Source of the DNA: Candidatus Zambryskibacteria bacterium CG10_big_fil_rev_8_21_14_0_10_42_12
GTDB taxonomy: Bacteria; Patescibacteriota; Minisyncoccia; Phycocordibacterales; 1-14-0-10-42-12
DNA: 64,000 nucleotides
Direction: 5' to 3'
NCBI GenBank assembly: GCA_002787695.1
Contig: PCXL01000011.1
Location: forward strand, 61,155-125,154
Shown: piece after piece, positions 1 to 63,315 of the stretch
Layout: each line of letters starts with the position of its first letter
Numbering within the stretch: the first letter of the stretch is position 1
Notes under the pieces: model-generated
Seen by the model: only the letters and a program-made list of their open reading frames with translations
Database searches by the model: none
What the model was told of the DNA's origin: nothing
Position numbers and translations under genes: made by a program

Positions 1-1082
1 GATCCTGCTTCCGCTACTTTTTCTGCAAGCTTTTCTCGAAGATACTTGCTTGCCATAACACCTCCACCAAATGCACATGATTGTGCACCAGATTCGACCA
101 AAGCCTTGAAGAGCTTTGTGGTGAGCACATCGGCGACAGCTTCTTCAAATTCTCTCGCAAGACCCGCCTGCCATTCGGCTTGAGCCGTCAGGCGATTGGC
201 GGGCAGGCCCGCTTTTTCATCCTCACTAAATTCATTATCTCTCACTGCATAGAGCACTGCTGTCTTGAGTCCAGAAAAAGAAAAGTCTAGATCAGGTGTA
301 CCAATCATAGGTCGAGGAAGTTCTACGGGTGAAGGAATCTGTTCTACCCGTGCTCGTTCGGCGAGGCGTCCGATTTCCGGACCGCCGGGATATGAAAGAC
401 CCAAGAGGCGCGCAGTCTTGTCATAGGCTTCACCGACCGCATCGTCGCGTGTTTTGCCGACTATAGTATATGAACCCCAAGAATCCATGTGAATAATCTC
501 TGTGTGTCCACCAGAGACGAGGAGAGTTGTCATGGGGAAGTTTGGTGTCTTGATGACATTATTTTCAAACAGGGCAGAGACGAGGTGTCCCTCCATGTGA
601 TTCACCGGAATAACTTCGACATGAGGCCAGAGCACTTTGAGTGCATGGGCAAAATTGATACCGACCCAAAGCGCCGGTTCGAGCCCTGGGCCTTGCGTGA
701 TGGCAATCACATCAATTCCCTCACCACTTACCCCGAGTAAGTGTTGCACAATATGTTCATAGAGATCAGGTTCACGTTCGAGCACTTTCTGAATTTTTTC
801 TTTTGTCTCGATGCTTGCTTCGATCTGTGTTTTAAAGAGTTCATTTTCTTTTTCTTTACTCTCCGCAATCACTTTCAGCATTACTGGAACCAGGTTCAAT
901 CCATGCTCGCGTTTTGCAAGTGCTGGAAATACTCCCCCGAATTCGGCGTGTAGATTTGCTTGTGAATGCACGATATGTGCCAAAACATCGACAGATATGC
1001 CCGTATCTGTTTTGTGCGTTCGTATGAGTGCAATCGAAGTTTCGTCACAGCTTGTCTCTATAGATAGAATAGTTTTTTGCAT
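1..1082 (-). CDS. tsaD: tRNA N6-adenosine threonylcarbamoyltransferase TsaD (Kae1/Gcp family); C-terminus runs off the window edge
   Basis: Minus-strand translation from ATG at 1082: MQKTILSIETSCDETSIAL...HMEGH...LLVSGGHTEII...VGKTRDDAVGEAYDKTARLLGL...GGGVMASKY. These are canonical TsaD motifs. It has no stop within the window, so it is absent from the ORF track. Confidence 0.9.
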   Translation of the reverse strand, partial: MQKTILSIETSCDETSIALIRTHKTDTGISVDVLAHIVHSQANLHAEFGGVFPALAKREHGLNLVPVMLKVIAESKEKENELFKTQIEASIETKEKIQKVLEREPDLYEHIVQHLLGVSGEGIDVIAITQGPGLEPALWVGINFAHALKVLWPHVEVIPVNHMEGHLVSALFENNVIKTPNFPMTTLLVSGGHTEIIHMDSWGSYTIVGKTRDDAVGEAYDKTARLLGLSYPGGPEIGRLAERARVEQIPSPVELPRPMIGTPDLDFSFSGLKTAVLYAVRDNEFSEDEKAGLPANRLTAQAEWQAGLAREFEEAVADVLTTKLFKALVESGAQSCAFGGGVMASKYLREKLAEKVAEAG

Positions 1083-1127
1083 ACTTTTTGTGCGCGGTGA
1101 GGGACTCCCCGCCTGCCAACGCCTGAA

Positions 1128-1195
1128 GTCGTAGACAATAGCGGGCAGGGAACCCCCGGCATCAACAACGTCAATGTTGCGCTCTACCAACTGAC
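1128..1195 (-). pseudogene. Degenerate tRNA-Val(GAC)-like copy (D-arm and anticodon arm recognisable; acceptor and T arms do not fold canonically)
   Basis: The minus strand reads GGGTCAGTTGGTAGAGCGCAACATTGACGTTGTTG. It has a D-loop like AGTTGGTAGAGC and an anticodon stem CAACA/TGTTG with loop TTGACGT (anticodon GAC), but no acceptable T-arm. It lies directly 3' of the intact tRNA-Val and is bounded by 17-bp direct repeats CCGCCTGCCAACGCCTG at 1109-1125 and 1196-1212. Confidence 0.35.
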
Positions 1196-1210
1196 CCGCC
1201 TGCCAACGCC

Positions 1211-1285
1211 TGGTGATCCTTGGTGGGATCGAACCACCGACCTTTTCGATGTCAACGAAACGCTCTACCACTGAGCTAAAGGATC
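1211..1285 (-). tRNA. tRNA-Val (anticodon GAC)
   Basis: Minus strand: GATCCTTTAGCTCAGTGGTAGAGCGTTTCGTTGACATCGAAAAGGTCGGTGGTTCGATCCCACCAAGGATCACCA. It forms a cloverleaf with anticodon loop TTGACAT and an encoded CCA. Confidence 0.85.
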
Positions 1286-1358
1286 GTATGCATGGCGGGC
1301 AGCTAACCGCGCAGAACGGGGCTATAGTATCGTTTCTGGCTGTATATTTCAAATGGTA

Positions 1359-4348: not shown

Positions 4349-5671
4349 ATGAATACCAATCAACATCAAAAAAATTATGAGGTGAAACTACCCAGAATAA
4401 TGACGATCGTTTTAAGCATTGCTTCTTATTATAGAAAAACATATTTTAATACTAATGACTTAGCTATATTAGGAAACAAATATAAGCAGGATATAATACG
4501 CACCAGGAAAGATAAGGAGCACTATGCTTTTGCGAATGACACGAATTTCGGCGGAATTAGAGGTAATCTCGCTACTTTGTTGACTTGGAAGGGGGTTATT
4601 AAAAAAGATAATAGATTAGTTAATGCGTATTCTGTTGGCAGAAATGAACAAATAGTTAATGCTGTTGCTAGTGGAAAAATTATGCTTGATCTGACAAACG
4701 ACAAAGCTCATACACAGAATGAGAATCTTTTAAAATTATTGAAGGCTGAGATTTACTTAAGGTCAGTCAGGGAAGGTCAGGCACATATAAAAACATTTAT
4801 AAAGAACAATAACCATATTGGTTTTGGGAGAGATCTTGAGTTTCCAAAAACTTCTGTAGTAAAGACCAGTAAAGGTGTATGTTTTTTGAGGGCAATTGTT
4901 AATAATTTTGTAGATAGTAAAAATGAAGTTCTTAGTTATAGAATAGTCGATTTATGGTCTTCTAAAAAAATTTTAAAAGCTAATATTCATGTCTTATTTG
5001 TTGTTCCTAGAGGTAGTGACTATTGGTGTTCTATCTATGCTTTGTCTTTGGAGGAACTGTGGATCAATAAACCTGCAATTATAAATATAAACTTACTAAA
5101 CAAAAAATGTTTTGATGACATTGGAAAAGAGTATGAATTAAGAAAATTAGATTATGCGATAAATAATTTTACGAAAAGAGATGCAAATATAAATTTGCGT
5201 ATAGGGTATGATCCAAGAGAATTTTTAATTAGATATGTTATTGATGAAACAAAAAATAAGAGAATAAGGGAAAGTGAATTTAGTTTGTTTACCAAGAATT
5301 TCTTGAATTGGAATCCGAGAATAAAAATTAATAATGTGGAGGTGTGTAACATTATTGAATCAAGTTCTGGTGGTGTTGATCTGACACTCCAGTTTGTTAA
5401 TGGATCTGAGGCAAAGGTTGAGCTTGAGCATAATTGGAAAAATTATATTGATCATGGTCATCATACTAGTAACGCATGGTCAAAATGTTGGTTGTATGCT
5501 GATGAGCAGTGGGATTTCGATAATATAAAAAATATTTTTCAAACACATTTTAAAAAGCACGGAGACCGTGTTCCAACAACATTTCTAACTAAAATAGATG
5601 GTAAACAAAAGATATTTAGAGTTGATTGGCATACTCTTGATGTTTCGGAAATCGATATTACAAATTATTGA
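4349..5671 (+). CDS. Putative restriction endonuclease of the adjacent R-M system (no recognisable family; C-terminal D...EAK PD-(D/E)XK-like motif)
   Basis: A 440-aa ORF in a strongly AT-rich block of roughly 30% GC. It is convergent with, and ends 6 bp inside, a two-methyltransferase operon. The C-terminal GGVDLTLQFVNGSEAKVELEH resembles a PD-(D/E)XK core. The call is by genomic context. Confidence 0.4.
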   Translation: MNTNQHQKNYEVKLPRIMTIVLSIASYYRKTYFNTNDLAILGNKYKQDIIRTRKDKEHYAFANDTNFGGIRGNLATLLTWKGVIKKDNRLVNAYSVGRNEQIVNAVASGKIMLDLTNDKAHTQNENLLKLLKAEIYLRSVREGQAHIKTFIKNNNHIGFGRDLEFPKTSVVKTSKGVCFLRAIVNNFVDSKNEVLSYRIVDLWSSKKILKANIHVLFVVPRGSDYWCSIYALSLEELWINKPAIININLLNKKCFDDIGKEYELRKLDYAINNFTKRDANINLRIGYDPREFLIRYVIDETKNKRIRESEFSLFTKNFLNWNPRIKINNVEVCNIIESSSGGVDLTLQFVNGSEAKVELEHNWKNYIDHGHHTSNAWSKCWLYADEQWDFDNIKNIFQTHFKKHGDRVPTTFLTKIDGKQKIFRVDWHTLDVSEIDITNY

Positions 5672-6414
5672 TTTGTGATTTTCTTTATGTTTTTCAATTC
5701 TTTTAGTCTATTGATCATAATTGCGTAGTATTCACTATCTTTTTCTATACTTATACTATTTCTCTCTAGGTCATTTGCAACTTTTGTTATTGTTCCACTA
5801 CCAGCAAAACAGTCTAAAATCAGATCGTTTTTATTGGTGAAAATTTTAATTAGAAATTCAATAACTTTCTCAGGTTTTTGTGTAGGGTGTTTTGTTCTTT
5901 CTTTTCCCATACATATCGGTGTTTCTATAAAATTATGCATCTCTCTTTGGTTGCTAAAGTTGAAAGTGTAGCTGATTTTTTTATTATCGAAACCGTTCGT
6001 TGCCCATACAATTGCCTCATTGGAAGACAAAAAACCATTTTTTCTAATTTGTGGTGCCGGATTTGTTTTATGCCAAATTATTGTTGCATGATGTGAAAAA
6101 CCTAACGATTCGTAGATCCGCTTAATATCACTTATATATTCTAACTTACAGAATAAAACTAAATTACCATTTTCCTTTAAAACTTTTTTAATCTCACTTA
6201 CCCACTTTCTGGTAAAAACCAAGAATTCATCATCTTTAAAATAGTCCCATTCTCCAAAATCAGAAGAAAGAGCTTTTCTACCTTTCAATAATTTCGTATT
6301 TTTATTGGCAGTATTGTAGGGAGGATCCACAATAACGGCATCAACTTTTCTTTTGATTTTACCTAGGGAGTTAAAAACATCTCCAAGGATTAGTGTGTGT
6401 TTGTTCTTTTTCAT
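5665..6414 (-). CDS. Site-specific DNA methyltransferase (beta-class N6A/N4C, DPPY motif before FxGxG)
   Basis: VIVDPPYN (motif IV), HPTQKP, DCFAGSGTT (motif I) at the C-terminus. Its start codon overlaps the stop of the upstream methyltransferase (TAATG), indicating translational coupling. Confidence 0.85.
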   Translation of the reverse strand: MKKNKHTLILGDVFNSLGKIKRKVDAVIVDPPYNTANKNTKLLKGRKALSSDFGEWDYFKDDEFLVFTRKWVSEIKKVLKENGNLVLFCKLEYISDIKRIYESLGFSHHATIIWHKTNPAPQIRKNGFLSSNEAIVWATNGFDNKKISYTFNFSNQREMHNFIETPICMGKERTKHPTQKPEKVIEFLIKIFTNKNDLILDCFAGSGTITKVANDLERNSISIEKDSEYYAIMINRLKELKNIKKITNQ

Positions 6415-7343
6415 TAGGTTTTATTTTTTATTCTATCAATCGACATCTTGTAGAACGCGTTGTCTATTTCGCATCCAGAGTAAAACCTGTTCATTCTTTT
6501 GGCTACCACAGCAGTGGTACCAGATCCGAGAAAAGGGTCGAAAACAATGTCACCGCTGTTTGTTGTTGATTTAATAATTCTTTCTAGTAACCACTCAGGT
6601 TTCTGTGTTGGGTGTATCTTCTTTCCTCCAAAAGTTTTACCTTTTGGCCAAATAGATCTCATTTGCTTGCCATCATTGTCTTTTTTCATTAAATCATAAT
6701 TGAAAATATTCCCCTTTCCTTTTCTGGCCCAAATAAAATTTTCGTGATCTGCTACGAATCTAGTACAAGACAAATTGGGTGTCGCATCTGTTTTATGCCA
6801 CAAGATTTCATTTAATAATTCAAAGCCAGTTTTTTCTAATAAATAACCGGTCGTATAAATACTGTGATAAGTTCCTGCCACCCATATTGCTCCATTTTTT
6901 TTCAAAATACGGAATGCCTCGTCTATCCATTTTTTCGTAAATAGTTCATAATTATCGATTATGTCCCAAAGACCTTTATTAGTATATAGGTCTTTGCCAC
7001 CTGATTTTGTAAATTTAATTTTAAAATTGCTTTTACTGAGATTATAAGGGGGGTCTGCAAAAATGAGGTCTATAGACTCGTCTTCTATTGAGCTCATTAT
7101 CTTTATGCAGTCATCGTTAAAAATCTTATTCTTGAGCCCGTCTTTTGTTATTTTATCTCTCGCCTCTTTTTTAGGTTTTTTAGAGAGGGTAAGTAGATAT
7201 GCTAATGAATCTTTTTCAATTCTTCTGGCACCTCCAATTTTAATAGAAGGAATTATATTTTTAGATATGTATCTTTTTATAGTTATTTCAGACACATTTA
7301 AAAAATCAGAAGCTTCTTTTATTGTGTAAAAATTTGGCTGCAT
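6414..7343 (-). CDS. Site-specific DNA methyltransferase (beta-class) with N-terminal HTH domain
   Basis: N-terminal MQPNFYTIKEASDFLNVSEITIKRYI (HTH). IFADPPYN, HPTQKP, DPFLGSGTT. Confidence 0.85.
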   Translation of the reverse strand: MQPNFYTIKEASDFLNVSEITIKRYISKNIIPSIKIGGARRIEKDSLAYLLTLSKKPKKEARDKITKDGLKNKIFNDDCIKIMSSIEDESIDLIFADPPYNLSKSNFKIKFTKSGGKDLYTNKGLWDIIDNYELFTKKWIDEAFRILKKNGAIWVAGTYHSIYTTGYLLEKTGFELLNEILWHKTDATPNLSCTRFVADHENFIWARKGKGNIFNYDLMKKDNDGKQMRSIWPKGKTFGGKKIHPTQKPEWLLERIIKSTTNSGDIVFDPFLGSGTTAVVAKRMNRFYSGCEIDNAFYKMSIDRIKNKT

Positions 7344-10078: not shown

Positions 10079-10714
10079 ATGAAGAAAGTAACAGCAATTA
10101 TTGCTACAGTAGCATTTCTCGCAAGTGTGAACGTAGCAAACGCATGGTACTGGGGCGGATGGAATGATGATGACAATACGGTAAACATCAATACTACAAA
10201 TTCTGCAACAGTTTCAAATACAGTAACTACAAAGGCAAACACTGGCTCAAACACAACAGTTGGCGGTAGTGCTGGTAACACAGTATCTGGGTATGGCAAC
10301 AACGGTGGTAATGATGCTACTGGAGGAGATGCAGATGTTGATACTGGTGATGCAACAGCAGTTAGTGATGTTCTCAACAATGTGAACGGAACTGACATTA
10401 ACGTTGTTGGTCCAGACTGTGGTTGTGAAGGTGACAACGAAGTAAACGTAAACGTTAGAAATAGCGCAACGGTTACAAACGATGTTTACACCAAAGCAAA
10501 CACGGGCTACAACACAACAGTTGGCGGCAGTGCAGGTAATGATGTAGACGGCGCTACTCGCCCATGGTGGAGAAGACATCATGTGGTAAATGGTGGCAAC
10601 AACGGTGGTAATGATGCTACTGGAGGAGATGCAGATGTTGATACTGGAGAAGCAGTAAGTGGTACGGTGGTATCTAATTACGTAAACCAGACAATAGTTC
10701 GCGTACGACGATAA
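10079..10714 (+). CDS. Secreted repeat protein (signal peptide; internal repeats TKANTGxNTTVGGSAGN and NGGNDATGGDADVDTG)
   Basis: Start chosen at MKKVTAIIATVAFLASVNVANA (signal peptide). Two near-identical internal repeat blocks. Confidence 0.6.
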   Translation: MKKVTAIIATVAFLASVNVANAWYWGGWNDDDNTVNINTTNSATVSNTVTTKANTGSNTTVGGSAGNTVSGYGNNGGNDATGGDADVDTGDATAVSDVLNNVNGTDINVVGPDCGCEGDNEVNVNVRNSATVTNDVYTKANTGYNTTVGGSAGNDVDGATRPWWRRHHVVNGGNNGGNDATGGDADVDTGEAVSGTVVSNYVNQTIVRVRR

Positions 10715-10736
10715 TCGTACAAGGTGAGGAAGGTTC

Positions 10737-10782
10737 CCTTCCTCCCGCAAAATCCCATATTTTCGGGATTTTGCGGGAGGAA
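10737..10782. terminator. Intercistronic 16-bp perfect inverted repeat (CCTCCCGCAAAATCCC / GGGATTTTGCGGGAGG)
   Basis: Lies between the stop at 10714 and the start at 10794. Confidence 0.5.
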
Positions 10783-10793
10783 CACCGAAAATT

Positions 10794-11285
10794 ATGAAAA
10801 GAAACATCGTGTACATACTCTATATGGGAATATTATGGGCACTCGCACTCCCTGCGCAGGCTTATACAGAGGTGACAAATACGGTGACAACAGAGGCAAA
10901 TACAGGAGGCGGAGGTGGTACGGCGACGGTCAACACAAAGATCTACACAGAGGTAAATGGGGAGGTGATAACTGATATCGATGAGACAAAGACAAGCACA
11001 GACGGTTCTCCTGTAGTGATAGAAAAGGAAATCACATATTCAGATAATTGGAGAGATATACCAACGGACATAGACATGGTTTCAGAAACTCGTACGGAGA
11101 CATCTGTACAGGTTAAAGAGGATTCAGTAATGATGAATGAAGATGATGTCGATGCTATGGAAGAAGTAATGGAGGAGATGACGGAGGAGCGTCTAGAAGA
11201 TGTTGAGGCAAGATCAGAGGCACAGGTAACCGTGTTTGCACGCATTAAAGTATTTTTCAAAACATATGTATTTTGGTGGCTATAA
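10794..11285 (+). CDS. Secreted acidic protein sharing the T(E/K)ANTG motif with neighbours
   Basis: Signal peptide MKRNIVYILYMGILWALALPAQA, then YTEVTNTVTTEANTGGGGG and an acidic C-terminal half. Confidence 0.5.
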   Translation: MKRNIVYILYMGILWALALPAQAYTEVTNTVTTEANTGGGGGTATVNTKIYTEVNGEVITDIDETKTSTDGSPVVIEKEITYSDNWRDIPTDIDMVSETRTETSVQVKEDSVMMNEDDVDAMEEVMEEMTEERLEDVEARSEAQVTVFARIKVFFKTYVFWWL

Positions 11286-13938
11286 AAAAGACCCAATATG
11301 TGAACAAGTGCTAGCGATATGGATCGCGCTTGTGCTTGTATGTGTTCCTGGTGCACCACTGTATGCTGAAGAAGGTGGAGATGCGGAGATAAACACTGGA
11401 GACGCGACTGTTTCGGTTGAAGCAACAAATAGTGCGAACAACAATGTTGTAGACACTGAACCAGAACCAGATCCAGCAGAGGAAGAAGAACAACCTGAAT
11501 CTGTAGAGGAACAAAGTGCTGGCGAGTCAGATGGATCAACAGAAGAAGGTGGGGACGACGAAGGTGCCACATCATCGCCGAGTTTATTGAGTCAGGAACA
11601 GCATGAATTGGCAACGAGTACGGCAACATCGACAGACCCAGTTGCTCAAACGGAGGTCGCTTCAACAACGGGCACGACTACTACACACACAACTATAGAT
11701 ATTGATAATGAAGCACATCTGGAATCAGGTGCCGATTTACTTGCACAGACAGGCGAGAATACTGCGACAAGCACAGGAACGACCACGATAGAAACGGGTG
11801 ATGCATATGCAAACGTAAATATTTTGAATATTGCGAATACAAATATTATTGATTCCTACGGTTTCATGTTGCTCCTTAATAGTTTTATGGGAGATATTGG
11901 AACGATAGATTTTAGAGATTTTATAGCACCATTACTTTTTAATAATAATCAGCAGTCATCTTGTGGTACCGGAGTTTGTGGAGGAGATGATACGCTCGAT
12001 ATTTCTGGAACCAGTACAACAACCATAAACAATGCCGTTATCGTGCGTTCGCAGACTGGTGGCAACTCTGCTTCTGGTGGTGATGCGTCAATACAAACAG
12101 GAGATGCATATGCGGGTGCTAATGTGGTCAATATCGCGAATACTAATATTGTTGATTCGAACTATATGTTGCTTGCCCTCAACAATTTTGGAGATTGGTC
12201 GGGGGATTTGGTGTTGCCTGGAAAAGATTTCTTTATCAATATGCTCTATGGCATGGGTACGACTGGCGCAGGAACAGTGACGGTGAATACAGAAAACAAT
12301 GCGAACATTGAAAACGGAGTTTCTACAGTTGCCGATACAGGAGGTAACACTGCAACAAGTACAGAGAGTGGAGCCAATATTGAAACAGGAAATGCTACAG
12401 CTCAAACAAACGTAACGAATGTAGTAAACCAAAATTTCTTTAATCAGGATTCACTATTTATTATCTTTAAAGTGCATGGCACATGGTCGGGAAATGTATT
12501 TGGACTACCGCCAGGGCTTTCATGGCGCGAGACACCGCATGGTATTGAAGTATTTGGAAGTGGACAGACGCAGACAGGTTCATCTGGTACTGGCTTGAAT
12601 AATCTCTCGATAAACCAACAGAACAATGCCGACATTAAAAACAACGTAGAACTGTATGCTCTTACGGGAGAAAATGAAGCAGGGGGAGGTAATACATCTA
12701 TTCAAACAGGTAATGCGTACGCCGGTGCCAATGTGGTTAATATGGCAAACACTAATATCATTGGCCGCAACTGGATACTTGCCATCGTAAACATCTTTGG
12801 TGACTGGAATGGAAACTTGGCCTTTGGACGACCTGACCTCTGGATAGGTGGCAAAATAGAGCCCGTAAACCCAATGAGTCCTATTGGACCCGGTTCTGAA
12901 CTTCGATATAAAGTTGTTGTGGTAAATAGAGGAGATTCTGATGCGACAGATGTTGTGCTTAAACATCGTTTTGATGTGCCATTTGTCTCATTTGTAGACA
13001 CAAGTAATCCTCAGAAGGTGAATGAGAGAGATACACTATGGAATATTGGCACGATCGCTGTTGGCGAACATGTTGAAATAACATTGCCTGCAGTGGTAAA
13101 AAGTGCACGTGAAATTGTAAGTGGTACAACTCGTATTGAGAGCATGTTTGAGGTTACGTCGTTTGAAACGGATGCTGACAGTGGTGACAACAAAGAGCAT
13201 CTTTCTGTTGTTATAGATAACTATGATGCAAACCTATCTCCAGTAAATCTAAATCCAAACATAGAAGAACCGGTCGTGCCGGTATTACCAGACTTTAGTG
13301 TAGTGAAGACGAGCAGTACTCATACAACAGTGGCAAGCAGTACAGTGGAATATACCGTGACGCTTAAAAATAATGGTGGGTTTGCGCCTGATGCGGTAGT
13401 GATCGATGCACTCAAAGATGAGAACGGAAATATTGTTTTTGAGCAGGTATGGCAACTCGGTCCCGTCTATGAGAATGAGGAAATTACCATTACATACGGA
13501 ACTATCTTTAGTGGTGATATGGAACCGGGATTATACACAAACACTGCAGAAGTCATTGCAAAAGTATCTACCGATAGCGAAGATGTTATCCGATCTTCCG
13601 CCGATGCGATCGTCGCACTGGAAGCAGGTGTAGTGGTAGAACCGCCAGTGATTCCTGCACCAGTGGTACAGCCTGTCAGACGACAGATTGTGGCGATGAA
13701 TGATACATACGGTATAACCCTGATCCCTCCGATGTGTAGCCTCTACAGTTGCTTAATAGATACGGATGATGAGGCTTCTACTCAATTTGGGTTCGGTAAC
13801 ATGTTTCTCGCATCAGCCTTTGGTAGCGGATTCCCGCCAAGTGACGATAGATCACTCAAACTCTTTATTTTGGCAGCAGTCATGTATGCGGTTGGCAGAC
13901 CAAGAGAGAATCGTCATGGCATGTCACTGTTCTTCTAA
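11266..13938 (+). CDS. Large cell-surface protein: signal peptide, Thr/Asn-rich beta-helix-like repeats (TGxNxAxxGxAxIQTGxAYAGANVVNxANTNI), two DUF11/CARDB-like domains, C-terminal hydrophobic anchor
   Basis: The repeat recurs at least four times. The DUF11-like segments are YKVVVVNRGDSDATDVVLKHRFDVP and YTVTLKNNGGFAPDAVVIDAL. The start is inferred at MYFGGY, overlapping the previous gene. Confidence 0.6.
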   Translation: MYFGGYKKDPICEQVLAIWIALVLVCVPGAPLYAEEGGDAEINTGDATVSVEATNSANNNVVDTEPEPDPAEEEEQPESVEEQSAGESDGSTEEGGDDEGATSSPSLLSQEQHELATSTATSTDPVAQTEVASTTGTTTTHTTIDIDNEAHLESGADLLAQTGENTATSTGTTTIETGDAYANVNILNIANTNIIDSYGFMLLLNSFMGDIGTIDFRDFIAPLLFNNNQQSSCGTGVCGGDDTLDISGTSTTTINNAVIVRSQTGGNSASGGDASIQTGDAYAGANVVNIANTNIVDSNYMLLALNNFGDWSGDLVLPGKDFFINMLYGMGTTGAGTVTVNTENNANIENGVSTVADTGGNTATSTESGANIETGNATAQTNVTNVVNQNFFNQDSLFIIFKVHGTWSGNVFGLPPGLSWRETPHGIEVFGSGQTQTGSSGTGLNNLSINQQNNADIKNNVELYALTGENEAGGGNTSIQTGNAYAGANVVNMANTNIIGRNWILAIVNIFGDWNGNLAFGRPDLWIGGKIEPVNPMSPIGPGSELRYKVVVVNRGDSDATDVVLKHRFDVPFVSFVDTSNPQKVNERDTLWNIGTIAVGEHVEITLPAVVKSAREIVSGTTRIESMFEVTSFETDADSGDNKEHLSVVIDNYDANLSPVNLNPNIEEPVVPVLPDFSVVKTSSTHTTVASSTVEYTVTLKNNGGFAPDAVVIDALKDENGNIVFEQVWQLGPVYENEEITITYGTIFSGDMEPGLYTNTAEVIAKVSTDSEDVIRSSADAIVALEAGVVVEPPVIPAPVVQPVRRQIVAMNDTYGITLIPPMCSLYSCLIDTDDEASTQFGFGNMFLASAFGSGFPPSDDRSLKLFILAAVMYAVGRPRENRHGMSLFF

Positions 13939-37421: not shown

Positions 37422-37610
37422 CAAGAATAAAAGAACTGGGCACGAATGTGTCTCGTGATTTTTATTCTCGCCTCGGGCGGGAATCGAAAGCCGGAGCGCG
37501 CGAAGCCGACCGTAGGTCGTGTGCGAGGCGGGGTCGCGACCTCCGTCGTGAAGATTTACCCAGCACTTATAACATAAGTGCTGGGTTTATCGAAACAGGA
37601 GAGTTGTGAC

Positions 37611-37628
37611 CGATTCCCGCCCCGGGCA
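37611..37628 (+). repeat. 18-nt direct repeat of the tRNA-Leu(TAA) 3' end (CGATTCCCGCCCCGGGCA)
   Basis: Identical to 37404-37421. The 190-bp segment between them contains hairpins and a partial inverted copy of the T-arm (GCGGGAATCGAA). Confidence 0.8.
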
Positions 37629-37677
37629 TCATATAAAAAGGAAATGCCCTCGCGGATGCGAGGGGCTTTATGGGGGA

Positions 37678-38076: not shown

Positions 38077-38784
38077 GTGCTAATGTTTTTTATATTAATA
38101 TATGGTATACGCTATATGCCTTACAATATTAAATACTACAAAACATATCAGTGGAGTAAAAAGTTGGCATATATAATTGGACTTATTGCAACAGATGGAA
38201 GTCTGTCTGTTGACGAGCGTCATATTGATTTTACATCTAAAGATTTAGAGCTTATCAAAATTTTTAAAGATTGTCTGAAACTTTCAAATAAAATAGGTAT
38301 TAAGAAGAGCGGCACAAACAGAGTTTGTTTTTGTATACAATTTGGTAACAAGAATTTTTACAACTTTCTAAATTCTATAGGGATTTATAAGGCTAAATCC
38401 AAAACTATAAAAAGGATTGATATACCTAATAAATATTTTCCACATTTTTTACGTGGCTGTTTGGATGGCGATGGTAATATTGATTTATACAAACATGCAC
38501 AAAGTCAATATATGCAAATTAGATTTAGATTTGCATCTGCGAGTAAACCATTTCTAGAATGGATATTACAGGTATTAAAAATAAAATATAGTATTGAAGG
38601 AGGTTGGATTTATAGTCAAAAAAATAAATCAACCCATGTTTTAGTCTTTGGTAAGACAGACACTTTGAAAATTGGAAAAATCATGTATCATGACCATGCG
38701 AACTTATGCTTACAAAGGAAGTTTGCAAAATATAAACAATGGGCAAGTGGCGGAATTGGTATACGCGCTAGTCTTAGGAACTAG
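38077..38784 (+). CDS. LAGLIDADG homing endonuclease (double-motif), AT-rich; 3' end overlaps tRNA-Leu(TAG) by about 44 nt
   Basis: Two LAGLIDADG motifs, LAYIIGLIATDGSLS and FLRGCLDGDGNID. About 28% GC. It lies between tRNA-Lys and tRNA-Leu(TAG). Confidence 0.8.
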   Translation: MLMFFILIYGIRYMPYNIKYYKTYQWSKKLAYIIGLIATDGSLSVDERHIDFTSKDLELIKIFKDCLKLSNKIGIKKSGTNRVCFCIQFGNKNFYNFLNSIGIYKAKSKTIKRIDIPNKYFPHFLRGCLDGDGNIDLYKHAQSQYMQIRFRFASASKPFLEWILQVLKIKYSIEGGWIYSQKNKSTHVLVFGKTDTLKIGKIMYHDHANLCLQRKFAKYKQWASGGIGIRASLRN

Positions 38785-38822: not shown

Positions 38823-38950
38823 CAGTGAGTTTTCGAACGAGGACAAGGACTAGCTTGTGATAACAAGCGTTAGTCTGACTCGAAGCCTGTTTGAGATATT
38901 TTGTGAGCTGGCGAAACAAAATATCCAAACACGGGTACTGAACCTGTAAG

Positions 38951-38974
38951 GTTCGAGTCTCCCCTTGCCCACAG
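38951..38974 (+). repeat. 24-nt direct repeat of the tRNA-Leu(TAG) 3' end (GTTCGAGTCTCCCCTTGCCCACAG)
   Basis: Identical to 38802-38825. The intervening 125 bp contains the hairpin GATATTTTGT...ACAAAATATC and a partial anticodon/T-arm-like stretch. Confidence 0.8.
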
Positions 38975-46624: not shown

Positions 46625-47431
46625 ATGGCTAGACGCTGGACAAAAGAAGAAGAGAAGTATTATCGAGATGAATTAGTAAATTTATATTACTCCAAAAACT
46701 TGAGCATGCATGAGGTAGCAAAGGTTTTGAATATAAAATCAGCTACGGTTTTTGATAGATTGCGCCGGTTACGTATTAACACGGTGCCTCATCTTAAGAA
46801 GGGTTATCGAAACGTTCGCAAAGATATTCGTATCCCAGATTGTCATGATGCAAATTTGGCAGAATTTTTTGGCATCATGTTGGGCGACGGCCACCTTTCT
46901 CATTTTCAAGTAACCGTAACATTGGGAACAAAAGAATATGTGTATGTGCAATATGTAAAAAAGTTAATGGAAAAAATTTTTAAAGTGCCAGTTAAAATCT
47001 CAGAAAGGAAGTTTAAGCGAACGGATAATAAGCATTATACTGTTTATTTTGGTTCAACCGTAACGAGTCAGTGGTTAAAAACTGAGGGTTTAGTAGAAAA
47101 TAAAGTGAAAAATCAAGTCGATGTTCCAAAGTGGATATTTGAAAATAATATATTCATGGAAAGATTTTTAAGAGGGTTTTTTGATACTGATGGATCGGTT
47201 TATAAATTGAGGCACGGCATACAAATTGGACTAACAAACCGTTCACTACCGATGCTGAAATCTTTACAATTGATGCTAAAAACACTAGAATACAGGACGT
47301 CTGAAATCAGTGGTTTTCGCTTGTATATAACAAAGAAGCAGGATCTAAAAAGGTTTTTTAAAGAGATTAAACCGAAAAATCCAAAACATACTGCCAGATT
47401 TCAGGAATATCTCAATGCGTCAGTCGCATAG
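46625..47431 (+). CDS. LAGLIDADG homing endonuclease (double-motif) with N-terminal HTH; 3' end overlaps tRNA-Tyr by 15 nt
   Basis: Two LAGLIDADG motifs, LAEFFGIMLGDGHLS and FLRGFFDTDGSVY. N-terminal LSMHEVAKVLNIKSATVFDRLRRL is HTH-like. AT-rich. The stop codon TAG lies inside the tRNA-Tyr acceptor/D region. Confidence 0.8.
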   Translation: MARRWTKEEEKYYRDELVNLYYSKNLSMHEVAKVLNIKSATVFDRLRRLRINTVPHLKKGYRNVRKDIRIPDCHDANLAEFFGIMLGDGHLSHFQVTVTLGTKEYVYVQYVKKLMEKIFKVPVKISERKFKRTDNKHYTVYFGSTVTSQWLKTEGLVENKVKNQVDVPKWIFENNIFMERFLRGFFDTDGSVYKLRHGIQIGLTNRSLPMLKSLQLMLKTLEYRTSEISGFRLYITKKQDLKRFFKEIKPKNPKHTARFQEYLNASVA

Positions 47432-62175: not shown

Positions 62176-63315
62176 TTGTTATCCATGTCTTACTATATGG
62201 GATTTTGGGAAAAACTGAAAAAACCGATTTATGCATTGGCGCCGATGGCGGATGTTACTGATGCAGCTTTCAGGCAACTCATCGCACGAAAAAGTAAATT
62301 TGATAAAAAAGGCGGTAATACAGGTGCGGAGTATGTCTCATGGACAGAATTTGTTTCAGCAGACGGTCTTGCACTTGCTCCCGAAGAAGGGAGACAGAAA
62401 CTGATGAAAGCGTTACTGTATTCCGAGATTGAACGGCCCATTGTCGCACAATTTTTTGGAAGCAATCCGGATCATATGGAAGCAGCGGCACGCCTTGCGT
62501 TAGAGCTCGGTTTTGATGGAGTAGATATCAATATGGGTTGCCCAGATCGCTCTATTGAGAAACAAGGTGCAGGTGCTGCGATGATAAAAACTCCTGAGGT
62601 GGCACGTGAGATTATTCGTGCTGTAAAACGAGGTGCCCGCCTGCCATCGTCTACGACTTCAGTCAATGGCGGGCAGGCTACACAGGGAGACAAACAAATC
62701 CCTGTTTCTGTAAAAACGCGTCTTGGGTACAACAAAGATGAACTCGATACATGGCTTCTTGTACTTCTGGAAGAAAAGCCGGCAGCTGTAACAATTCATG
62801 CGAGAACAAGAAAGGAGATGTCTAAAGTTCCTGCACACTGGAACAGGATTAAAGATGCGGTAGATATCAGAAACGAGATGGGAAGTAAAACTTTGATTAT
62901 TGGTAATGGAGATTTGGGGACACTTAGTGATGGGGATCAGAAAATACAAGAGACTGGTGCAGATGGGGTCATGTTTGGTCGTGGAGTTTTTGGTAATCCA
63001 TGGTTTTTTAATAAAGAATTAGTTTCAGATGATGAAGTTGCTTTACCAGTTCGTGGTCAGACAGAAGGAGATAAGGTGCGATACAGTAATACTAAAATTT
63101 CCCAGGAAGACAGATTGAAAACTTTGTTAGAACATGCAGAATTGTTTGATGAATTTTTGGGAGACACTAAAAGTTTTGCTGTCATGAAAAAACATGTGAA
63201 GGCATATATCTCCGGTTTCCTCGGCGCAAAGGAAATCCGTGATCAACTTATGCAGACAAAAGATCTTCAAGAATTTCGCAACTCTCTTAAAATTTATAAA
63301 CTTGCTACCGACTGA
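62176..63315 (+). CDS. dus: tRNA-dihydrouridine synthase with an in-frame insert of about 20 aa encoded by a GC-rich hairpin repeat element
   Basis: ALAPMADVTDAAFR, GVDINMGCP, IPVSVKTRLGY. The insert RGARLPSSTTSVNGGQATQGDKQ corresponds to the 42-bp element at 62636-62677. Confidence 0.85.
   Translation: MLSMSYYMGFWEKLKKPIYALAPMADVTDAAFRQLIARKSKFDKKGGNTGAEYVSWTEFVSADGLALAPEEGRQKLMKALLYSEIERPIVAQFFGSNPDHMEAAARLALELGFDGVDINMGCPDRSIEKQGAGAAMIKTPEVAREIIRAVKRGARLPSSTTSVNGGQATQGDKQIPVSVKTRLGYNKDELDTWLLVLLEEKPAAVTIHARTRKEMSKVPAHWNRIKDAVDIRNEMGSKTLIIGNGDLGTLSDGDQKIQETGADGVMFGRGVFGNPWFFNKELVSDDEVALPVRGQTEGDKVRYSNTKISQEDRLKTLLEHAELFDEFLGDTKSFAVMKKHVKAYISGFLGAKEIRDQLMQTKDLQEFRNSLKIYKLATD
62636..62677. 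repeat. 42-bp GC-rich hairpin element (arms CCCGCCTGCCA ... GCGGGCAGG), copy B, in-frame within dus; copy A at 1108-1149
   Basis: Copies A and B have identical length and identical arms in the same orientation. The central 14-bp core (CTGAAGTCGTAGAC against GTCTACGACTTCAG) is inverted between them. Confidence 0.6.

Follow-up and report, generated by a model that had tools for sequence, protein, structure and literature searches.

How did a GC-rich hairpin come to lie in frame within dus, the gene for tRNA-dihydrouridine synthase, an essential enzyme of tRNA modification, of Candidatus Zambryskibacteria bacterium CG10_big_fil_rev_8_21_14_0_10_42_12? The gene (62176–63315, plus strand; PF01207) is an intact open reading frame (ORF) of 379 residues, with its nearest named matches in Kaiserbacteria and Paceibacterota. 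It belongs to a 64,000-nt stretch of contig PCXL01000011.1 (positions 61,155 to 125,154), which as a whole is called the window here. The element in question, copy B (62636–62677, plus strand), is a 42-nt hairpin with the sequence CCCGCCTGCCATCGTCTACGACTTCAGTCAATGGCGGGCAGG and encodes RLPSSTTSVNGGQA. A first-pass annotation of the window had paired it with a second hairpin of 42 nt, copy A (1108–1149, plus strand; CCCGCCTGCCAACGCCTGAAGTCGTAGACAATAGCGGGCAGG), and had proposed a repeat element with an invertible centre. Copy B is very probably a recent and precise insertion of a small non-autonomous mobile DNA hairpin. It represents an apparently undescribed family of small hairpin repeats, mobile hairpins akin to repetitive extragenic palindromic (REP) sequences and Rickettsia palindromic elements (RPEs).

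In an alignment of 28 Dus sequences, RLPSSTTSVNGGQA is present only in the window protein and in the identical cluster P0001. None of the 26 aligned orthologs, P0002–P0007 included, carries the 14 residues, in line with the earlier assumption that typical Dus proteins have no such loop. Orthologs of 67–83% identity read RGAQNGDKQIPVSVK or a similar sequence (RGA[Q/D/K][N/D]G[D/E]K), and the loop is shorter still in more distant ones. These orthologs also display the empty site at the codon level, since removal of 42 nt from the window gene leaves GGT GCT ACA CAG GGA, equal in length to GGA GCA CAA AAC GGA of the relatives. Consequently, copy B adds exactly 14 codons within an older variable loop of six to seven residues. 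The first-pass annotation was thus right about an insertion and wrong about its size, which it had put at about 20 residues. The residues beside the insert (A..TQGDKQ) are part of the older variable loop, for which close relatives have AQNGDKQ.

An AlphaFold model of Dus (predicted local distance difference test score, pLDDT, 85.7) places the insert between helix 140–153 and strand 177–181, with a pLDDT of 51 for residues 161–170. According to this model the insert is a surface loop leading from an α-helix to a β-strand, and it lies on the TIM-barrel side opposite to the catalytic β-to-α loops. The surface position, which the first-pass annotation had named as a point to check, is predicted as a low-confidence loop on the non-catalytic face. 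The homologous Dus structures 1VHN and 6EI9 in the PDB have a gap at the insert position. It is highly probable that the element in dus is a tolerated passenger rather than a functional module.

Copies A and B are of equal length, and their first 11 and last 9 nt are identical and co-oriented, with the arms CCCGCCTGCCA...GCGGGCAGG. The difference in orientation is confined to the apical 14 nt, where CTGAAGTCGTAGAC of copy A is the exact reverse complement of GTCTACGACTTCAG of copy B; the spacers beside the arms stay direct. The equal length, the identical co-oriented arms and the reverse-complemented centre had been noticed at first reading and were confirmed from the sequence. Over the whole element, A and B are 79% identical in inverted orientation (repeat search) versus 71% in direct orientation (hand count). 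Direct arms and an inverted centre are thus combined in this chimeric pair, with copy A as the canonical 'flip' and copy B as the 'flop' loop form. The arms CCCGCCTGCC and GGCGGGCAGG are the imperfect inverted repeat that had been described, in which 8 of 10 positions are complementary and the others form a T-G and a C-A opposition; ViennaRNA favours a bulged A and a G-T pair in the stem. Folded as DNA, copy B reaches −8.3 to −9.0 kcal/mol (z about −2.2), and the hairpins of each strand fold at −8 to −14 kcal/mol, z ranging from −1.7 to −3.3.

Across the 64-kb window (43% GC) there are exactly four occurrences of the 10-mer CCCGCCTGCC. With up to one mismatch there are five matches versus 0.88 expected from shuffled sequences. 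A scan of the window for GC spikes returned other hairpins, mostly terminator-like, and no additional family members. The proposal of a repeat element rather than a lone structure holds, with further copies in the window, in a relative and in at least 61 family sequences. As to the number of genomic copies, the window contributes two more (163–207 and a split copy at 1195–1301) and topA of a relative another one.

Copy C (163–207, plus strand; 45 nt, CCCGCCTGCCATTCGGCTTGAGCCGTCAGGCGATTGGCGGGCAGG) lies in frame in the minus-strand gene tsaD and encodes GLPANRLTAQAEWQA. This segment is missing from 12 TsaD orthologs, two of them 81% identical, and the empty site in the relative L127 reads AAA GCG GGA CTC GCA. 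In the relative L003, with a Dus protein 71% identical, a 45-nt copy in topA (topoisomerase I) adds PARQSPEGSNQMAGE; this copy is absent from the window and from L005. Given these empty sites, the three protein genes dus, tsaD and topA show presence and absence of copies within one lineage.

Copy A was at first taken to be intergenic, which is too simple a description. Its site is within a disrupted ancestral tRNA gene, tRNA-Val(GAC)#2 (1091–1312, minus strand), preserved in the pieces 1312–1302, 1194–1150 and 1107–1091; the insertion point lies in the T-loop and separates positions 56 and 57. A fourth copy of the element, split and 107 nt long (1195–1301, plus strand), is inserted in the D-stem of the same gene between positions 11 and 12. 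It consists of the X arm with AACGCC (1195–1210) and the other end GTATGCATGGCGGGCA (1286–1301), and its apical loop holds a live tRNA gene, tRNA-Val(GAC)#1 (1211–1285, minus strand). The latter is classed as functional, was found by ARAGORN, scores 71.9 bits in Rfam and is the sole intact tRNA-Val(GAC) in the window. Along the minus strand the order is GCGCGGTTAGC, TGCCCGCCATGCATAC, the complete tRNA-Val(GAC) (1285–1211), GGCGTTGGCAGGCGGG, TCAGTTGG...GGGGGTTC, copy A and GAGTCCCTCACCGCGCA, which stops 8 nt short of the tsaD start codon. Deletion of the 42-nt and 107-nt inserts yields a 74-nt tRNA-Val(gac) with a normal cloverleaf (ARAGORN), and both insertions are base-exact with zero duplicated bases. 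The middle piece of tRNA-Val#2 with the arms reaches only 21.8 bits in Rfam. Positions 1–40 are 93% identical to an intact tRNA-Val(gac) at the same place upstream of tsaD in L126–L128. Since removal of the inserts rebuilds the tRNA and the ortholog of the relatives is intact, the ancestral tRNA-Val gene took up one element in its T-loop and another in its D-stem.

The sequence of tRNA-Val#1 is unrelated to the resident tRNA-Val of the relatives and has no match at their loci; a pattern scan of the IMG/VR viral contigs gave no match either. Copy A and the split copy have an 18-nt direct repeat, CCCGCCTGCCAACGCCTG, in common. A plausible order of events would be that the cargo-bearing copy destroyed and at once replaced the resident tRNA-Val, and that copy A, with its 18 nt in common, then landed in a dead gene. 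The encoded CCA of tRNA-Val#1 was considered as a sign of retro-insertion and dropped; two of ten tRNAs encode CCA, and two of its three bases belong to the repeat of the element. A public TsaD gene call covering this region, P0121 (445 residues; window 1083–1340), has its start upstream of the real one. As the element is free of stop codons in the frame concerned, the call continues across the dead tRNA-Val and copy A, reading ...AGGSLPAIVYDFRRWQAGS... there.

Further members were sought in a collection of one genome per species (596 Gb) with the pattern CGCCTGCCA-N17-28-RGCGGGCAGG, which gave at least 120 matches. The family counts (sequences, labels, lengths and flanks) cover the matches listed only and hence are lower bounds. 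Among those in loci below 56% GC there are at least 61 distinct sequences of 38–48 nt, and nearly all of these matches have a CC prefix that the pattern does not demand. Our own estimate from composition puts the chance expectation at about one match for a collection with 45% GC throughout. Matches in GC-rich genomes were rejected as members; they are chance-like, have no CC prefix and lie within ordinary coding sequence. The ends of the family, 5'-CCCGCCTGCCA ... (R)GCGGGCAGG-3', are invariant within the set and slightly asymmetric. Together they form a stem of 10 bp that includes one G-T pair and, in addition, a bulged A or a C-A mismatch. Between the ends the sequence is variable, is usually a hairpin in its own right and can hold cargo. 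A common core is AACGCCTGAAGCCG[C/T]AGGCAAT. Copy A matches L097 except at 3 of 42 positions, and L087 is similar to copy C; some members have unrelated cores, some of which are not palindromic at all. A covariation alignment of 17 members of 42 nt supports the invariant arms only and is uninformative on structure either way.

The listed metagenome-assembled genomes (MAGs) are labelled as Patescibacteria (Doudna-, Nomura-, Jackson-, Lipton- and Curtissbacteria, Saccharibacteria, SR1), Desulfobacterota, Bacteroidota, Ignavibacteriota, Chlorobiota, Fidelibacterota/Marinimicrobia, Dehalococcoidales (Chloroflexota), Planctomycetia (Planctomycetota), Actinomycetota and 'Gammaproteobacteria'. The family thus spans uncultivated bacteria labelled as at least eight phyla. 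Its carriers include the complete MAG chromosomes CP070673.1 and CP070843.1. Among 2.9 million viral contigs of IMG/VR it is rare, with four matches to the element pattern. BLAST searches gave no match in the phage records of INPHARED and only chance-level partial matches, in GC-rich plasmids, in the plasmid records of PLSDB. In Rfam the window returned tRNAs only at the gathering threshold, and region 1000–1320 at E ≤ 10 returned nothing relevant beyond tRNAs and a pseudo-tRNA of 21.8 bits, which was set aside as the middle of the split tRNA-Val#2. In the searchable literature, whose coverage is incomplete, neither the arm strings and keywords nor the text and supplements of a survey of GTAG/CGTC REPs led to a description of the family.

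Two kinds of related unit were observed beside the members proper. In L060 (5225–5270) a related hairpin with other arms (CCCCGTCCGCCATCGGCTCCGCCTTCAGGCGTGCCGGGCGGGCA) lies between two family copies; hence, sister families with different ends may exist. Units of 20 nt that consist of the arms with no interior occur in L049 (7319–7338, CCAGCCTGCCGGCTGGCAGG), L087 (3506–3525, CCTGCCTGCCGGCAGGCAGG) and L111 (1686–1705, CCCGCCTGCCGGCAGACAGG), and may be minimal forms or excision footprints.

Insertion is exact and occurs without target-site duplication or target consensus. A 2-nt duplication flanks only one of 65 copies, and the flanks of these 65 have no target consensus and no conserved base up- or downstream. 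They also have no GTAG/CGTC consensus; CTAC follows copy B and follows neither A nor C. Flanking complementarity is not significantly enriched overall, with at least six paired bases at 6 loci versus 4.2 ± 1.8 in shuffles, and three loci do have flanking stems of 10–12 bp. Related genomes differ in whether they have a copy in dus, tsaD, topA and tRNA-Val, four sites in all. Among the copies well inside long ORFs, the length is a multiple of three in 10 of 11, against 27 of 50 elsewhere. Copies kept inside genes are stop-free, in-frame additions of 13–16 residues in loops. The likeness to the in-frame tolerance of Rickettsia palindromic elements, pointed out in the first-pass annotation, was borne out in dus, tsaD, topA, an RNase J gene and a UvrD-like helicase gene, the last copy being common to two Nomurabacteria species. 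Copies occur in both orientations, about equally so in ORFs, and two reading frames, one per strand (ARLP...GGQ and LPAN...WQAG), recur in proteins unrelated to each other, namely Dus, RNase J, TsaD and the UvrD-like helicase.

Nested or tandem copies are found in L030, L101, L109 and L122, and nested and abutting ones are common in loci of Desulfobacterota. Two copies in L060 are located downstream of tRNA genes, at a distance of about 48 nt. Three copies in L068 (Saccharibacteria) follow TCGA[A/G]TCC within repeats that resemble tRNA 3' ends. The same locus contains units of about 140 nt after tRNA-Arg genes (5643–5950 and 6383–6560), each ending in a copy of the 3' end of that tRNA; the first is tandemly duplicated. 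It is within these repeated 3' ends that the hairpins of L068 lie.

The flipped centre is not peculiar to the window. For copies A and B the longest shared interior stretch is 14 nt as reverse complement versus 4 nt in direct orientation. The interiors of L036 or L060 compared with L134/L135 have 16 and 14 nt as reverse complement versus 5–6 direct, and copy C and L112 have 14 versus 6, with almost the entire interior flipped. Three independent pairs make inversion across the inverted repeat a recurring feature of this family. When metagenomes were scanned for the canonical core joined to the 'wrong' arm, the matches were two contigs (L134/L135) of unrelated organisms with 43–44% GC, both reading CCCGCCTGCCATCGCCTGCGGCTTCAGCCAATGGCGGGCAGG. 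This sequence is built like copy B and agrees with it in 38 of 42 positions. Compared with the widespread core, A and B have two transitions in common (GAAGTCGTAGAC against GAAGCCGTAGGC). Because of these two transitions the centres of A and B are sister sequences, and the flip, or conversion between oppositely aligned copies, took place within this lineage. Hybrid arms, as would result from exchange within the stem, are present in L087 (CCTGCCTGCC/GGCAGGCAGG) and L122 (GGCGGGCGGG). An assignment of B and C to one shared core orientation, with A as the odd one, was dropped; A and C have the commonest orientation for their core type and B is the flipped form. The first-pass annotation had considered recombination between the arms a plausible cause of the inversion. 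The inversion itself is confirmed and extended by the two further pairs; recombination is one candidate for its cause, beside template switching and repair of a break at the apex.

For movement, the element would form a single-stranded hairpin that is recognised through its asymmetric stem by a trans-acting enzyme of the HUH/Y1 type, as proposed for REP sequences with their REP-associated tyrosine transposases (RAYTs) and for IS200/IS605 insertion sequences (IS). The lack of target-site duplication and the conserved irregularities of the stem fit this scheme. Such a hairpin intermediate, handled in trans by a hairpin-specific enzyme, is possible but in our judgement rather doubtful. Flip and tRNA capture might have a common basis, for the apical loop appears fragile, since both the flips and the tRNA cargo are found there. 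Breakage or template switching at the hairpin apex would be followed by repair from an oppositely aligned copy or from filler DNA. We consider the chances of this explanation of the flip and the tRNA-gene capture to be about even.

Several observations weigh against a mobile family of this kind and against the HUH/Y1 scheme in particular. No transposase or other recurring gene was detected within 8 kb of about 56 family loci by ORF clustering and Pfam; in the all-against-all clustering of ORFs from 56 loci and the Pfam search near copy clusters, housekeeping genes only recur. Thirty ORFs of the window that were scanned with Pfam contain no mobilising gene either. Hence, the mobilising enzyme is wholly inferred. 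Neither a conserved cleavage tag (GTAG, CGTC) nor a target motif of the IS200/IS605 type accompanies the copies. According to the part of the literature consulted, REP/RAYT systems are lineage-restricted and vertically inherited, so that identical ends across phyla are unlike them. That the arms do not vary within the set is in part circular, as the pattern fixed them, and the CC prefix and the low-GC background alone are independent evidence. All listed family matches come from MAGs and none from isolates, and taxonomic labels of MAGs can err. Finally, the copy counts cover about 74 kb of the source organism, with four copies, and about 120 kb of loci of its relatives (L002–L005 and L126–L129), with one.

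Other explanations of the hairpins have to be compared with a mobile element. That the additional segment in Dus is an ancestral loop or an assembly artefact has a practically negligible probability. Although some Dus orthologs have four to seven extra residues at the site, and P0112 has 17, the absence of the 14 residues from orthologs of 67–83% identity contradicts an ancestral loop. The window sequence is reproduced in its overlaps at 100% identity by the Joint Genome Institute (JGI) contigs Ga0066639_10001303 (L001, spanning copy B) and Ga0066639_10045581 (L137, spanning copies A and C and the tRNA nest), which may stem from the same sample. Moreover, two Nomurabacteria MAGs from separate studies hold orthologous copies, and the in-frame bias of gene-embedded copies is a biological signature, all of which argues against an artefact. 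Just as little credence can be given to hairpins that arose separately at each site by template switching or palindrome formation and are alike by convergence or chance. New hairpins, and loop inversions too, are known to arise by template switching, but ends of 11 and 10 nt recur in the family sequences of low-GC genomes far above the chance estimate given above. Cores are also common to different genomes, as between copy A and L097 and between copy B and L134/L135 (4 of 42 positions differ), so that the family data contradict a separate origin.

The arms could instead be a protein-binding or structural site useful to the host, like REPs that serve gyrase, IHF or mRNA stability, which spread by selection and entered genes by accident. 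This would agree with the two non-Watson-Crick positions of the stem, which are the same in every copy retrieved, and with copies just downstream of tRNA genes (L060) or within terminator-like hairpins (L108, L041 and L042). The invariance of the arms is partly imposed by the search pattern, however, and copies break a tRNA gene twice and sit in five housekeeping proteins. Their orientation relative to genes is random, their placement follows no positional rule, and a host factor present in eight phyla yet absent from cultured bacteria is implausible. We therefore regard a host site as improbable. Even less probable is an element acting at the RNA level. It would be excised from mRNA and tRNA like an intron, or ribosomes would bypass it as they do 'byp' elements in mitochondria, and both Dus and tRNA-Val#2 would be produced free of the insert. 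The exact positions in D-stem and T-loop recall non-canonical archaeal tRNA introns, and removal does yield a perfect tRNA. Excision or bypass would not need the multiples of three and the freedom from stop codons that read-through selects and that 10 of 11 coding copies have, nor does it fit both orientations in ORFs. The stem has mismatches instead of the two 3-nt bulges of a bulge-helix-bulge motif, and no Rfam family matches. Since a second, intact tRNA-Val(GAC) is present in the window, tRNA-Val#2 need not function.

The mobile DNA hairpin, as the preferred explanation, has a number of known counterparts, of which REPs and their doublets (REPINs) in REP/RAYT systems are close ones. They are imperfect GC-rich hairpins of 20–40 nt, repeated in the genome without target-site duplication; here the elements have 38–48 nt and number four in 64 kb. 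Tandem or inverted pairs are possible in both (here L030 and L108), as are copies in coding regions, REPs having been reported in genes for repair proteins, tRNA synthetases and pseudouridine synthases (Di Nocera et al. 2013, PMC3733652). Unlike REPs, the elements end in CCCGCC.../...GGCAGG without a GTAG/CGTC tag, and no RAYT gene occurs in the 8-kb flanks of about 56 loci or among the 30 window ORFs. Their stem sequence is the same across phyla, whereas REP stems are lineage-specific. Their interior is variable and able to carry cargo, and they come so far only from uncultivated low-GC lineages.

RPEs are likewise palindromic selfish DNA found in frame in housekeeping ORFs and in RNA genes. 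Reportedly described by Ogata et al. in 2000, they are said to be translated as an extra surface segment. Compared by description, they differ in being about 100–150 bp long, AT-rich and restricted to Rickettsia, whereas the present elements are GC-rich, are found in a patescibacterial host and cross phyla. MITEs, a name for miniature inverted-repeat transposable elements, also are non-autonomous, have short terminal inverted repeats around arbitrary filler and can nest; here, in contrast, target sites are not duplicated, a parent IS with such ends was not found and the units are several-fold smaller than typical bacterial MITEs. IS200/IS605-derived elements similar to palindrome-associated transposable elements (PATEs) insert 3' of a fixed tetra- or pentanucleotide target and have hairpins at both ends; the present elements have no such target, and their two ends form one hairpin. 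Archaeal bulge-helix-bulge introns have two 3-nt bulges and a 4-bp helix in place of the continuous stem seen here (G-T, C-A mismatch or 1-nt bulge), which also occurs in ORFs and intergenic DNA.

GC clusters, double-hairpin elements and 'byp' elements of fungal mitochondria are another parallel. All are GC-rich palindromes of 30–50 nt that spread in AT-rich genomes and come to lie inside protein genes. They are, however, organellar, and byp elements are bypassed by ribosomes and need not have a length of 3n, to which the genic copies here are held. In the minute inversions of chloroplasts and the terminal repeats of parvoviruses, a segment between short inverted repeats likewise exists in both orientations while the stem is kept. 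In parvoviruses both forms come about when the entire terminus is replicated from a hairpin primer, whereas here the asymmetric outer arms are fixed and the inner part flips.

Taken together, the features could define a class of ultra-small hairpin transposons of about 40 nt. It would have asymmetric 10-nt ends common to different phyla, insert without footprint into protein and tRNA loops, flip its loop and, with tRNA-Val as cargo, replace the resident gene that it destroyed. Its hosts would be uncultivated and mostly anaerobic or groundwater lineages. This joint reading is offered tentatively, at somewhat less than even confidence. If true, it would imply a hairpin-specific enzyme that is widely transferred. 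Small palindromic repeats of the REP and RPE kind mostly stay within a single lineage and their spread is debated, from which a cross-phylum family would differ. Such a family would be useful in three respects, since comparison of close relatives for presence or absence dates its copies, these enter protein and tRNA loops precisely, and they can hold a working tRNA in the loop. How hairpin DNA moves, what limits insertion into genes and whether it can ferry genes would thereby become testable questions. In practical terms, the elements inflate or mis-extend gene calls in MAGs, as in TsaD P0121, and mask tRNA genes from tRNA finders.

Other insertions adjoin tRNA genes of the window. Directly after tRNA-Leu(taa) there is an insert of about 200 nt (37422–37640) that ends in a direct repeat of the tRNA 3' end (CGATTCCCGCCCCGGGCA) and also contains an inverted copy of this 3' end and the GC-rich core GCCGGAGCGCGCGAAGCCGACCGTAGGTCGTGTGCGAGGCGGGGTCGCGACC. 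In L126–L128 (L127, 9860–9945) this core recurs at 94% identity in the interval from tRNA-Val to tsaD, and here too a remnant of the tRNA 3' end follows. Judged by these repeats, the insert seems to be a small element of a second type, with tRNA 3' ends as its target. After tRNA-Leu(tag) an insert of 127 nt (38824–38974), with a sequence unrelated to that after tRNA-Leu(taa), is followed by an exact 24-nt repeat of the tRNA 3' end (GTTCGAGTCTCCCCTTGCCCACAG). Two free-standing ORFs of the LAGLIDADG type (PF14528) adjoin tRNA-Lys/tRNA-Leu (38077–38784) and tRNA-Tyr (46625–47431), and may be candidate homing endonucleases acting on tRNA loci.

Elsewhere in the window, two adjoining N6/N4 DNA methyltransferase genes (5665–7343; PF01555), one with an N-terminal helix-turn-helix and with a DUF4268 protein beside them, probably form a restriction-modification or orphan methylase island. 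Several direct repeats of 60–114 nt (10165–12108) lie within and just upstream of an ORF of 900 residues (11236–13938) that is repetitive and rich in Gly and Asp.

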